Part shown: one piece after another, positions 1 through 52,396 of the stretch
How the letters are laid out: each line of letters opens with the position of its first letter
How positions within the stretch are numbered: the stretch's first letter is position 1
NCBI GenBank assembly: GCA_047459655.1
Contig: JAJREF010000002.1
Span: 191,903 to 255,902, forward strand
DNA from: Rhabdochlamydiaceae bacterium
Lineage (GTDB): Bacteria > Chlamydiota > Chlamydiia > Chlamydiales > Rhabdochlamydiaceae
Length of the DNA stretch: 64,000 bases
Direction: 5' to 3'
Translations under genes and position numbers: made by a program
Notes under the pieces: model-generated
What the model saw: the letters and a program-made list of their open reading frames with translations, nothing else
Told to the model about the DNA's origin: nothing
The model's database searches: none

Positions 1-70
1 AAGAGGTCTAATCTAGTATTCGCAAAAATTGGAAGGAAGATTCGATAAATGACTTGTCCAGAGGTTCCTA
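1..70. repeat. Right ends of two nested palindromic elements (truncated by the window edge)
   Basis: 1-10 AAGAGGTCTA equals the right terminus of the 52084-52396 element; 11-69 resembles the right arm of the 30067-30229 element, ending in the identical AAATGACTTGTCCAGAGGTTCCT. Confidence 0.75.
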
Positions 71-193
71 TAACTCACCTTACGCAAAAAGTGAGTAAAT
101 TTATTTTTTTATGAAAGCTGAAAGTTGCGTTTTAGGCTAGGGACCTATATAATCGCTTTTTAGTGCTTATTAAAAGCGCAAACGGATTAGTCA

Positions 194-1729
194 ATGCAAG
201 AAATTATTTTAAATATTGAATCGAAAGAGATACGCTGTGCCCATCTCCAAAATGGTCTTCTGTATGATTTGATCATTGAGCGTAAAAAGACAAGACAGCT
301 CACCGGGAACGTTTATCGAGGCAAGGTAACAAATATTTTACATAACATCCAATCCGCTTTCATTGACATCAATGAAGGGGAAAATGGATTCATTCACATC
401 TCCGATATTCTGGAAAACACACAGAAGTTCCAGGAAATGTTCGATATGGACTTCGATTTTGAAAAGAAATCAACAAAAAGCAAAAAAAATGAAACCGACA
501 TCACAAAAATCCTAAGCCCTGACCAACCAGTATTCGTACAAGTTGTCAAAGAACCAATCGGCTCCAAGGGCGCAAGACTTACTTCTAACGTTTCTATTGC
601 AGGCAGATACCTGGTCCTCCTTCCCAACATCCCCCACCGAGGTGTCTCGCGTAAAATTGAAGACCGTTCTGCAAGAGAGCGCTTAAAAAAAATGATAAGC
701 TCTTTTGAGATGCCCAATGATATGGGGCTCATTTGCCGAACAGCCAGCATGAATGCTACTCCTGAACTTCTTATCGAGGAAGCTCACGATCTTCTGAATA
801 CATGGAAAGATATTGTTGAGAAGTTTGAAAAAGCTACAAAACCGACATGCCTTTACGAAGAATCTGACATCATCAAGCGAACAGTTATAACAGCTGTTGA
901 CAAAAAAATTAACCGCATCCTCATCGACGATTATGACACCTTTCAAAGATGCAAAGGGATCTACAGCAAATATAGCAACGAACATTTCGTAAAGATTGAA
1001 CTCTATCGTGATAAATCCCCTATTTTTGAAAGATTCGGCGTCGAAAGAGAAATTGAAAAAGCCTTAAAAAGAAAACTTTGGCTACCCAGTGGGGGCTACC
1101 TTTTCTTTGACAAAACAGAAGCGATGTACACGATCGATGTTAACTCTGGGAGGAGCAAAGATCAAAGCTCCGTGAGAAGTGTTGAAGAATCTTTAGTGCG
1201 TATTAATATGGAAGCAGCAGATGAAATCGCAAGACAGCTACGACTCAGAAATGTAGGCGGCCTTATCATTTGCGACTTTATCGACATGCGTTCGAAAAAA
1301 AATCAACGTAGAGTACTTGACAGGCTCAAAGATGCAATGAAAGATGACTCTGCTAAGTGCACTATTTTAGGAATGAGTGAATTTGGACTTGTTGAAATGA
1401 CAAGACAAAGACACCGAGAATCTTTAGCTCAAACACTCTTTACCCACTGCCCCTATTGTAGTGGCAGCGGCCTCATAAAGACCCATGAAAGCACTTCGAT
1501 TGAAATCGAACGCGCTCTTAAAAAATTGGTGCTCCAACAACAGCAGTTTGCTATAGAATTAGTTTGCCATCCCTTGCTTGATCACTATTTAAATCATGGT
1601 GATAAATCATATTTTGGAAAATTAGCCCATGTCTGGCATGCTGATCTCAAGTTCAACGCCAACGACTCGTTCCATTTAAATGAATTTCAATTCTACTCAA
1701 CAACAAATGGCAAGCGGATTGACATTTAG
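194..1729 (+). CDS. rne: Ribonuclease E/G family protein
   Basis: S1 region GNVYRGKV..AFIDI..GFIH, KEPIGSKGARLT, IDVNSG, LRLRNVGGLIICDFIDM, CPYCSGSG. Confidence 0.93.
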   Translation: MQEIILNIESKEIRCAHLQNGLLYDLIIERKKTRQLTGNVYRGKVTNILHNIQSAFIDINEGENGFIHISDILENTQKFQEMFDMDFDFEKKSTKSKKNETDITKILSPDQPVFVQVVKEPIGSKGARLTSNVSIAGRYLVLLPNIPHRGVSRKIEDRSARERLKKMISSFEMPNDMGLICRTASMNATPELLIEEAHDLLNTWKDIVEKFEKATKPTCLYEESDIIKRTVITAVDKKINRILIDDYDTFQRCKGIYSKYSNEHFVKIELYRDKSPIFERFGVEREIEKALKRKLWLPSGGYLFFDKTEAMYTIDVNSGRSKDQSSVRSVEESLVRINMEAADEIARQLRLRNVGGLIICDFIDMRSKKNQRRVLDRLKDAMKDDSAKCTILGMSEFGLVEMTRQRHRESLAQTLFTHCPYCSGSGLIKTHESTSIEIERALKKLVLQQQQFAIELVCHPLLDHYLNHGDKSYFGKLAHVWHADLKFNANDSFHLNEFQFYSTTNGKRIDI

Positions 1730-2711
1730 AGAAAAAGTTACACTATATCGAAAACGCAACTGGATCACGCCTAAAGTCGAGGAAAACATCCTCAGATTTC
1801 ACGACACCTACTATGCAAGTTTGCAAGCACACAATCTACCAGTAGAAAAATGTGAATCTATCTTTGACACCTACCTGGATTTAGTAAAAGAACACCTACA
1901 AAAACATTTTGTGTTCAAGCCTTACCACCATAAAGTCTGCCATCCTTTTGATTTTTACGCTTTTGGAGTCGATTTTTTACGACCCCTTGTCGACGAAAAA
2001 AAATCGACTGTAAGTGGAAAGAAAAACCTGGAAGAAGTTGCAGCACACCTACAGAAAAAAATAACGTCATCTTTTTGCAAACCACCAAATTGAAGCCGAC
2101 CCCAAGCTTTAAGCATCCTTCTAGAAAATCTATACCCAGAGATTGGATCCAATATGATCTTCGTAGCAGGCGAGCGCGTTTTAACAGACCCTCTTGCGGT
2201 TCCTTTTAGCATGGGAAGAAACCTCCTCTGTATTTATTCAAAAAGATACATCGATACTCCTCCTGAAAAAAAAACAGAAAAGCAACTCCACAACAAACGC
2301 ACTATGGAACTCATGAGCTCACTCCTCAAAGAAGGAGGTAAGTGTATCTACGTAGCGCCAAGTGGTGGCAGAGATCGGGCCAATGCGGAGGGTGTGGTTG
2401 AAGTGGCCCAGCTAGACCCCCAAAATATCAAAATGTTCTACCTCATGGCGCAAAAAGCAGACCATCCAACATTTTTCTACCCGATGGCCTTGTCCACATA
2501 TGAACTATTGCCCCCTCCAGAAACCATTCAAGTAGAGCTAGGCGAGCAGAGAAACGCAAAACGTGGAGCGATTCATCTCTCTATTGGAGAGTGTCTTGAC
2601 ATGGAAACATTTCCAGGCTCTGATCATACAGACAAGCAAATGCGAAGACAAGCAAGAGCTGACTATGTATGGAAAGAGATTTGCAAAAACTATCGTAAAA
2701 TAGTACGATAG
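1707..2711 (+). CDS. plsB: Glycerol-3-phosphate acyltransferase (chlamydial/plastid type), frameshifted near 2055-2095
   Basis: PFDFYAFG, FVAGERVLTDPLAVPFSMGRNLLCIYSK, YVAPSGGRDR; split over ORFs 1680..2093 and 2154..2711. Confidence 0.88.
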
Positions 2712-49910: not shown

Positions 49911-52076
49911 TCTTCGCCAGCTATTCTACTTAGCACTTGCGTCATGAGCAACCGTTTTGCATCCATACTCAACATCTTCTGACCATCACTTACCTGATCT
50001 GTAATGGGATCAGGATTTTCTGTTTTTTTCACTAATCTAAAAAATGTGACATCTCCTTGAGAAGAAGGAAGAACAGGAGACCACTCACCCGTAGGAATCT
50101 CAAATACTGCTGCTTTAGAAAAAGTTGTTCTATCGCTTCTTTTAATATCTTGATCACATTTAAGAAGAAGCCACTGGTCTTTTAAGGGATCGCCCTGCCC
50201 TATCAAATAGGGCGACTTCTCCCCTTCTTTGATAACGCTTTTTCTGGCTTCTTCCATAAAAGATATGAGCTTACTAGATGCATAGTCAGAAAAGCGGATT
50301 TTCTCTGAAGGTACCATCTGATAGACAAGCGAGCCTACCTCATCATAAACATTTCCGAGGGCTTTCCATGAACCATCGGCAAGTTGAAAAAGGGAGGGAT
50401 CTTTTTTTCTAACATCGGGATATGCATCTTCCAATTTTTTATCGAGGAGGTTCCCAATCCAATCTTGTTTTAAAGACTCTTTAAATGTCATGATCTCTTT
50501 TTTAGTGGGTTTTTCTAAGACGGTCACGACGTAGTAGCTCCTCCTTGTCAGGGCTATAAAAAGAGGCTTTCTCTCCAATCGATACTCCCTGGAGAAGCTC
50601 TACTAGCTCGCTACCATTATCAATGTCTTCAAAAGGATAAACGGCTCCTTTTGAACAAATATTTACCCTTACTTTTTCCGCCTCTTTTTTGTGGAGAGCT
50701 TCTTGCATCCATTCAGGGTGCTCACCTACAATTTGATTTCTTGCAAATGTATCAACCTTTAGACGGAGCTGCTCATCACAAGCATCTAGTACTTTTGCCC
50801 TTTCTGCAGAAAGCGTATTTTTTAAGGAAGGAAACTCTTTCATGAGGAGCGCCCACCCTGCATCGCTGGTTTCCCAATTCCATGTCTCTTTCAAGGTGAT
50901 TCTACTAGCAATTTCTTGCCGTTTGGCACGAGAAACTTCCAAGTAAAATTTGCTTTGCACCAGTTGTGGACAACGCTTTTCGACTTCTTCTATACTATAA
51001 AATTGGAGAGGTAACTTTTGAGATTTTGTTTTCGGAGCCACCGCATCGATGTAGTACTGAAATTTGAGGAAATCTCGAAAATTTTGAAATCGCAAAAATG
51101 CAGGAAGCTGGTACCTTTCAATGCTGGCAGAGGCGCCTGCATAATCTGCAAATTGGTGATAAACAAGATTGTCTAAAAACATCCCCTGGCCTACCTCATC
51201 AAATAATCTGCGAAACAACATGATGTTTTTCCAGATCTGGAGGGAGTCAGCCTCATCGATTTGTTTGTAATAGAGCACGCTACGCAAAAGGTTTTGTGCA
51301 TCTGTACGCGTGACATTATCTTTACGCAGGGAGACTTTTAGATAACCGACGGTGTGCTCAAGTAGATCTGCTTTGACTTCCTCTTTTGAAATTCTATATC
51401 CTTTTTCTTGTGCTATCTTAGCAGCATTGATCACTGTCAGGGCTACTTTTTCTAAGTATTTAGGAGTGAACCAGTCTTCTAAAAGAATGAAACCCAAAAA
51501 GAGCAAGTCGCTCTTGTGAAAGAGAAGGGTCAGGCCGTATCCACTCATACTGCTTTTGTTGGTACATCAAAATCTTTCTAAAAGCGCGGGAGATACAACT
51601 GTCTGATCAAGATAGAGTCTGCAAAAAAGAGCAAAGCTTTGCGGGAAAGAGGGGTTTCTTTTAAAGCAGCTAAATGGGAGAGCACTTCTGGAGCAAATCT
51701 TGATAAAGCTTCTTCTACATTGATAAAAGAGGCTTGAGGATGTGCATAGAGACGGTAATGTTTGGCTTTTGTAAGGCGCTCTGCAAATCCTTCTTTCAAC
51801 TCATCGAAATATTTTTCTGCAATGATAACTCCCAGGCCTGTAGCAAAAAGATCTTTCTGGATAAAATCGACGTTATCGCATGAAAAAATCGGACCATTTT
51901 CTGAACATCTCTTTCCATAATCGGCGATCCATCGACTGCTTGGGTCATTTCTTTATCGACAACTGTCTCTTGCGTTGTCAAATTAGAAACCGTCCCAAAA
52001 AGAGGAACGATGCAATAGTGACAGTGGCCACAATCATGAATAAAATCCTTTGGTGCTTTCTTAAAATTGTTAACAT
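49907..52076 (-). CDS. Conserved chlamydial membrane-anchored protein (SurA/PpiD N-terminal-like), several frameshifts
   Basis: MLTILRKHQRILFMIVATVTIASFLFLG N-terminus; fragments 49907, 50502, 51578 and 51796. Confidence 0.6.
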
Positions 52077-52083
52077 ATCTGAA

Positions 52084-52396
52084 TAGACCTCTTGCGTAAC
52101 TAAGGGCTCGTAAAGAAATAACTATGGCATTTAAGCTGAGTTAAAGCCCCGGGGTTCGAAGCGTAGCAAATGGGGCTAGTATTACCAATACAACCCCATT
52201 TGCTACACTCGAACCGCGGGAGCTTTCACACAGCTTAAATGCCATAGTTATTTCCTTACGAGCCCTAAGGGTTCGTCGATTTTCGGGATTATTTTGGCTG
52301 ATTTTCAATTTAAATTGCAGGGGTAATATACGCAAGTTGATATTACCCCTGCAATTAAATCGAAATCGACAGAACCTTAGTTAAGCAAGAGGTCTA
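52084..52396. repeat. Palindromic element with a second 164-bp palindrome (52103-52266) nested in it
   Basis: Outer TAGACCTCTTGCGTAACTAA / TTAGTTAAGCAAGAGGTCTA; inner 36-bp arms AGGGCTCGTAAAGAAATAACTATGGCATTTAAGCTG with one mismatch. Confidence 0.9.

Follow-up and report, generated by a model that had tools for sequence, protein, structure and literature searches.

A common interior core in palindromic elements with different insertion-sequence ends in a Rhabdochlamydiaceae genome

[quoted passage not shown] According to the excerpts of PMC3184786, MITE cores from different bacteria have no similarity. The 155-bp form of the Correia element contains a 50-bp IHF-binding interior proposed to help transposition (excerpts of PMC2229807), and in the rice Stowaway element Ost35 the interior boosts transposition, with swapped ends as well (excerpts of PMC3660474). 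Here we describe long palindromic elements in a 64,000-nucleotide stretch of a Rhabdochlamydiaceae bacterium, below called the window (G000:C2:191903-255902, where G000 is the source genome; its 1.61-Mb, 5-contig assembly is 81.6% complete, which applies to all negative results for this assembly). One interior of about 110 bp, not found in the cognate IS, travels with the ends of several unrelated transposase families, and it occurs in a third of the sampled genomes of the order with its fixed mismatches kept. The ends are ordinary MITE biology; the shared interior is real and widespread. We favour, as a likely account, several MITE families moved by their own DDE transposases, plus a core passed on by end swapping that may aid the meeting of the ends.

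Hairpin elements of the window and the genome

A preliminary description of the window listed several of these elements, each as one long hairpin. They are present at the places given there, and all fold as single long hairpins (minimum free energy of RNA folding -75 to -114 kcal/mol, plus strand); the nesting of one element within that at 52084-52396 holds up too, as do both partial elements at 1-69. The locations stand, and the exact ends are revised, as the earlier ones took in target-site bases. The features, in window coordinates of the forward strand, are:

1..9: family-K right terminus (IS5/ISL2-type) lying inside a family-A element, with AAT after it (by BLAST, K covers window positions -87..8)
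10..68: right part of a family-A MITE (element positions 104-162), the left part preceding the window
74..95: remnant bearing a family-B (IS701-type) terminus, adjoining the A element (read directly from the sequence)
5706..5868: family-E MITE, 163 bp, flanked by a 3-bp ATT duplication (5703-5705, 5869-5871), its initial 18 bases equal to an IS5 (ISL2-type) end
5736..5838: diverged copy of the shared core within the family-E element (RNA model 53 bits, sequence-only profile E 7e-6)
30068..30228: family-A MITE, 161 bp, coreless, flanks TTCA/TTTA (the family duplication is 4 bp), ends as in the IS5 element G000:C3:6644-7825
49033..49191: family-I MITE, 159 bp, TA/TA duplication, IS630-type ends
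49057..49168: family-I copy of the shared interior core
52085..52395: family-K MITE (146 bp when the insert is left out) hosting the nested F element, AAT/AAT duplication, IS5 (ISL2-type) ends
52104..52265: family-F MITE, 162 bp, within K, TAA/TAA duplication, no cognate IS in the loci searched, missing from the orthologous site of a related population
52129..52240: family-F core with the AAAGC box, the central RTATT-loop-AATAY stem and conserved mismatches

The expected size peak and multicopy state hold: of the 132 inverted repeats in the genome, 64 have spans of 160-179 bp, compared with none in 479,660 shuffled bases. Twenty-two seeds yield 299 loci and 122 full copies, which together make up 1.9% of the assembly, and 91 of 142 end-to-end elements are 158-167 bp long. 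Full copies and loci number 55 and 95 for family A, 4 and 12 for E, 2 and 2 for I, 3 and 4 for F, and 1 and 18 for K. Another element abuts 119 of the 299 loci. Family A has repeatedly inserted into D, E and K elements, and it forms head-to-tail tandems with one common TTAA (G000:C1:163105-163432, 431377-431703 and 639870-640197).

Shorter forms exist as well. Five coreless 70-bp J-type copies each have their own 3-bp duplication, coreless forms of 85 and 94 bp are also multicopy, E/K-type ends enclose 103-104-bp elements in phage contigs (L305, L333, L341, L349, L354, L375), and B-type ends enclose 113-175-bp elements in metagenomes. Thus the fixed size is not a strict requirement for movement.

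Any given frame is free of stops in at most 10 of the 47 families that contain the core. Peptide coding by the core was rejected, as the lengths scatter over every residue modulo 3. No Rfam family scores above the gathering threshold on the hairpins, the only matches being sub-threshold ones to microRNA precursors, and a BLAST search of plasmids with 52084-52396 gave only four chance-level matches.

Two identical copies of a group II intron of about 690 nt without a long open reading frame (ORF) were found at G000:C3:40903-41593 and C5:319182-319872. Rfam domains D1-D4 are above threshold, and each copy stands just behind a hairpin whose last 7 letters are the same in both cases. One copy splits a family-E element beside the hairpin tip; the other is within a family-C element. 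This suggests a hairpin-targeting intron with MITEs as landing sites.

Ends, target duplications and partner insertion sequences

The elements are MITEs and move like DDE-type elements. They are short, non-coding and multicopy, families A, E, K, I, B, M and L/U have IS-matching ends, and target duplications and empty sites are present. The suggestion that they are non-autonomous, with enzymes encoded elsewhere, is borne out. The duplications are family-specific and measure 2, 3, 4, 5 or 7 bp. What had been described as ends at TA or TAG is in fact a mixture of several duplication classes (ATT, TTCA/TTTA, TA, TAA, AAT). With mispaired flanks as the control, the 4-bp duplication of family A is seen in 35 of 55 copies (17.7 expected), the 5-bp duplications of D and C in 5 of 6 and 5 of 13 (0 expected in both), the 7-bp duplication of B in 4 of 8 (0 expected), and the 3-bp duplications of F and E in 3 of 3 (1 expected) and 4 of 4 (2 expected). 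G has a 3-bp duplication in 3 of 4 copies and I has TA in 2 of 2; the statistics of such small families are weak when taken singly. Nested elements provide filled and empty pairs for A in D (4 bp), D in K (5 bp) and F in K (3 bp).

An orthologous empty site was found for the F element of the window. In run X6, from a population about 90% alike, one contig omits exactly 165 bp (162+3) at F and retains the outer K element. The flanks of the element at 5706 in two genomes of the same genus are too diverged or rearranged to read. An A-type end in place of this element in run X6 was not counted, being a single 21-letter joint and too thin.

The ends of four of the five window families (A, E, K, I) match full-length IS5 or IS630 elements, and in general the identity of terminal bases with full-length DDE insertion sequences of different families ranges from 14/16 to 18/18. 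The 17 terminal bases of family A are identical to those of a 1182-bp IS5-family element in the same genome (G000:C3:6644-7825; NF033581 295 bits, cut-off 140), and the same ends occur on a 586-bp deletion derivative of it. We take it to be of the IS5 sub-group of this family. For E and K the end matches are IS5-family elements of 900-1010 bp in relatives, 7 of 9 of them with an ANT duplication; their split ORFs reach 128 and 88 bits on NF033581. We take these elements to be of the ISL2 type, a label supported by PF13359. Thus A shares ends and a 4-bp duplication with IS5-family elements, and E and K share ends and the 3-bp ANT duplication. Family I combines the TA duplication with IS630-type ends, 14 of 16 end bases matching the IS630 element L542 (NF033545 110 bits); the 38 viral loci scanned for I gave no cognate IS. 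The ends of B match IS701 elements with 7-bp duplication, and for M and L/U the ends agree with other IS5 and IS1182-like elements. L094, a family with the core, comes from a genome that also contains its IS630 partner.

Since ends and duplications match different DDE insertion sequences, each family is likely moved by its own transposase. Each would be cut and pasted in trans by an enzyme of the IS5 groups, IS630 or IS701 that reads its end sequence, and, judging from the end matches, transposases with matching ends very likely do move these elements. Two further candidates were set aside. The end of an IS1182 element (L526) resembles that of D and was not counted as a match; an element considered as the IS5 partner of L115 (L485) was dropped, since its ORF is that of a second IS inserted within. 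The IS5 group with E/K ends may also be a candidate mobiliser of RPE-1, a Rickettsia palindromic element (RPE), going by the RPE-like ends remarked on in the preliminary description.

For most MITE families no transposase was found in the assembly. Two multicopy IS of about 1.5 kb (10 and 7 copies; e.g. C1:58293-59781 and C1:300803-302306) have no matching MITE among the 22 seeds. At G000:C1:55800-58239, two genes (frames of 408 and 328 aa) lie between L/U-type inverted ends 2.4 kb apart with no clear duplication, a possible composite with MITE ends. This assembly yielded no HUH (Y1) gene.

The shared core and its possible role

In eight families of this genome (B, F, G, H, I, J, N, O) the ends differ and the interiors are homologous; the core is flanked by IS630-, IS701- or IS5-type ends. 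E joins the group more weakly; A, C, D, K and L do not. The arms of the window elements had been thought unrelated. That is true of the element at 30068, for which 0 of 47 pairwise comparisons with core families give z>3, and almost true of the outer element, for which 1 does. It does not hold for the elements at 49033 and 52104, whose interiors are 60% identical (z 7.6-9.2 relative to mirrored shuffles), and probably not for that at 5706 (profile E 7e-6; pairwise z>3 in 18 of 47). The central sub-hairpin noticed in several elements is indeed shared.

A pattern scan of other genomes yielded at least 109 core loci, so that the range of distribution is a lower bound. At least 76 of them, with 150-172-bp spans, together with 24 copies from this genome form at least 47 families at 80% identity, 153-170 bp in length. 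An RNA model built on 50 interiors matches 49 of 150 genomes of the order, in 39 of 110 genera, and the named public records with the same elements are mostly of environmental chlamydiae. The sole match outside the order (G047) is in a stretch with 43% GC, which may be misbinned, and the model matches none of 100 other genomes of that phylum. Two phylum labels among the core records may be submitter labels on chlamydia-like genomes. Weak matches need care, since the model also scores other long hairpins (49 bits for K and 38 for L, vs 75-108 for most core copies). It has no match within the 13 IS or IS-like elements tested.

Several features of the core are conserved. The AAA and TATT boxes and the identity and position of the mismatches are kept over about 39 genera, whereas the neighbouring pairs turn over; two-sided changes occur at 28 of 37 core pairs. 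The spacing of the boxes is 35-37 nt in 134 of the 136 arms scored. A C/G mismatch ahead of the AAA box is found in 27 of 29 model-found elements, and it recurs in all four elements with the core that were inspected from other genomes after a search with F ends only (L594, L598, L611, L614). Core positions -26 and -2 are mismatched in 69% and 72%, and the rest of the stem is mostly 90-100% paired. In other genomes F ends enclose unrelated interiors of 149-177 bp, and the chimeric element L071 has ends from two families; thus ends and interiors are modular. What remains of the earlier idea of a superfamily is narrower, namely an interior with conserved fold, spacing and mismatches common to differently ended families.

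It is probable that the ends are exchanged around the core by recombination or arm-to-arm conversion, with nesting helping. The core would be kept because it helps the two ends to meet (synapsis). By analogy with the IHF-binding Correia interior (excerpts of PMC2229807), and given the 35-37-nt box spacing and a modest 11.5-bp phasing, it may act in cis to aid transposition, recognised by a host factor or in the form of a fold-back, and may also set the size of about 160 bp; this part of the account is plausible but tentative. A stronger version is possible and rather doubtful: the core would be a portable, transposase-independent module that a chlamydial host factor folds or bends through the fixed boxes and unpaired bases, pre-pairing the ends of any IS at about 160 bp. 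The interior would then hijack IS5, IS630 and IS701 by end swaps, and the same geometry would draw unrelated interiors to that length.

A number of observations weigh against the account of own transposases and an aiding core. Only A has a cognate transposase in the assembly, interrupted near its 5' end, and it is the sole match in tblastn searches with 10 transposase queries; the transposases of E/K, I and B were not found there, nor were matches to PF13358, PF13586, PF13751 or PF01797. No full-length IS was found for the ends of F, G, H, J, C and D: for F this covers 52 viral loci plus a further 30 from 301 genomes, and viral scans for C and D returned 0 and 1 loci, none of them an IS. There is a single empty orthologous site, on one depth-5 contig. 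Family A, the most abundant, lacks the core, unrelated interiors have the same size, and the coreless A, C, D, K and L are also 161-166 bp long; thus the core alone cannot account for the size. The coreless 70-, 85- and 94-bp forms spread too. Covariation in a palindrome may stem from arm-to-arm conversion without selection, and the model-found set behind the mismatch count is biased towards the features of its training set. In pooled related cores, A/T phasing near 11.5 bp exceeds a run-preserving control 2.4-fold, and in most single families it is not significant; a DNA-bending periodicity, strong relative to base shuffles, was rejected, as it is mostly lost relative to run-preserving ones.

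Two alternatives to the synapsis aid retain some credit, and we consider both unlikely, to the same degree. The first accepts the ends as above and has the core kept for host transcription, either as back-to-back promoters meeting at the hairpin tip or as a transcript hairpin that stabilises or terminates RNA, which would make insertions tolerable. Matches to TTGACA peak at a 17-nt spacer before TATTNN (mean 2.83/6, 33% of them at least 4, vs 0.6-2.1 at other spacers), and known MITEs serve as promoters and RNase III sites (excerpts of PMC10969869 and PMC2229807). However, most of the putative -10 hexamers (TATTAA, TATTGA) do not end in T, a promoter scan gave no site within the F or I elements, and the orientation of flanking genes shows no clear bias. 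The G:T and A:C mismatch counts are also not significantly unequal (77 vs 57, p 0.10), and both relative orientations of outer and inner mismatches are found (39 vs 21). The earlier remark that many arm mismatches are compatible with G:T pairing applies only to the element at 30067 (7 G:T, 1 A:C, 13 other), the remaining three having 1, 2 and 0 on the plus strand; of 334 mismatches in the 47 core families, 200 are of kinds other than G:T and A:C.

The second alternative is neutral shared ancestry: an old MITE interior inherited through end swaps, its arms homogenised by conversion and some mismatches kept only because they lessen the instability of the palindrome. Chimeras and nesting indeed show that swapping occurs, conversion by itself yields two-sided changes, and coreless families are the most successful in this genome. 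However, conservation of the boxes and of mismatch identity and position over about 39 genera, amid turnover of neighbouring pairs, weighs against it, as does the steady box spacing.

The preliminary description proposed a single superfamily recognised by shape and length. That one enzyme, HUH/RAYT-like or other, reads the fold and length of all elements is very unlikely, since duplication lengths of 2-7 bp and the IS matches follow the end type and fit DDE families. This explanation would account for the sharp size peak over unrelated families and for the conserved unpaired bases in the core; hairpin-recognising enzymes do read unpaired bases. Y1 genes occur in 33 of 49 core-bearing genomes vs 39 of 100 others, a test that the relatedness of the genomes overstates. 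On the other hand, 16 of the 49 have no Y1 gene found, like this assembly, the core is near none of 15 Y1 loci, and short coreless forms have moved. One REP-associated tyrosine transposase (RAYT) gene (NF047646 above cut-off) does lie within B-type (IS701-type) ends with a 7-bp duplication, in the region L227:1004-1884, a point for this explanation; the gene is a passenger carried between DDE ends.

Finally, it is most improbable that these are RPE or Correia elements gained by the lineage, as the link once drawn to RPE fails for RPE1, with a best score of 12.5 bits on its peptide model (cut-off 30) and only 2 of 122 full copies in open frames, and, although I ends match 12 of the 13 first letters of 155-bp Correia-type elements from phage contigs, the interior of the latter reaches z>3 with 0 of the 47 core families and has no profile or RNA-model match.

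Some other features of the window were noted. Conserved genes (dnaA, clpC, murE/F, ftsI, mraW, peptidase M16) are broken across it, as many genes of the assembly are by frameshifts. Contigs of run X1 vary by single-base indels, including at such spots, which indicates assembly or sequencing errors; most of the gene breaks are probably sequencing errors. A fragment matching OrfB_IS605 (TnpB) is at 54348-54806, with no Y1 partner found in the assembly. A 57-bp tandem array lies within an ORF at 47442-47783, and a 300-bp duplication (98%) stands on either side of an ankyrin/DUF4116 gene region (21042-21341 and 23203-23502).

Comparison with known systems

The MITE nature of these elements is of an already known kind; what is unusual is one conserved core with fixed mismatches common to families with different IS ends. 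The literature searches, which covered neither ISfinder nor subscription journals nor supplements, brought up no account of chlamydial MITEs with a core in common, and the string "Chlamyd" occurs 0 times in the excerpts of PMC10969869, PMC11602168 and PMC3184786. With these natural constructs one can test directly what makes MITEs more numerous than their autonomous partners and what causes the clustering of their sizes. They also supply matched pairs of ends and transposases, including an IS5 element and a 55-copy MITE in one genome.

In REP/REPIN elements with RAYT and in TIRtrons, hairpins have conserved mismatches as here (excerpts of PMC3733652). The present elements differ in having no terminal GTAG/CGTC tag, in their DDE-type duplications and in the lack of a core-flanked Y1 gene. 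RPE are likewise several palindromic families in an intracellular bacterium, 105-146 bp long (excerpts of PMC2229807). In the two respects compared, peptide and frame, our elements differ from RPE1, with no match to its peptide (TIGR01045) and almost no in-frame insertions.

Correia elements are similar to family I in the TA duplication and the near-identical first 13 letters, and their long and short forms also differ by an interior segment (excerpts of PMC2229807). However, their interior is not detectably homologous to the core, and they have one end type. The interior of rice Stowaway Ost35/14T32, which enhances transposition and still works after end replacement (excerpts of PMC3660474), is a model for what the core may do. 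That system is eukaryotic, involves one transposase superfamily and an engineered swap, and the role of the core here is proposed by analogy.

There is also a close likeness to IS-derived bacterial MITEs (RUP with IS630-Spn1, Correia/NEMIS, ERIC and YPAL), which, in the excerpts of PMC2229807 and PMC10969869, are 100-200 bp long, have IS-matching terminal inverted repeats and target duplications, form long stem-loops, and are intergenic, clustered and nested. The present genome differs from these in that more than 10 families coexist near one length, and one interior is joined to the ends of at least three transposase families.

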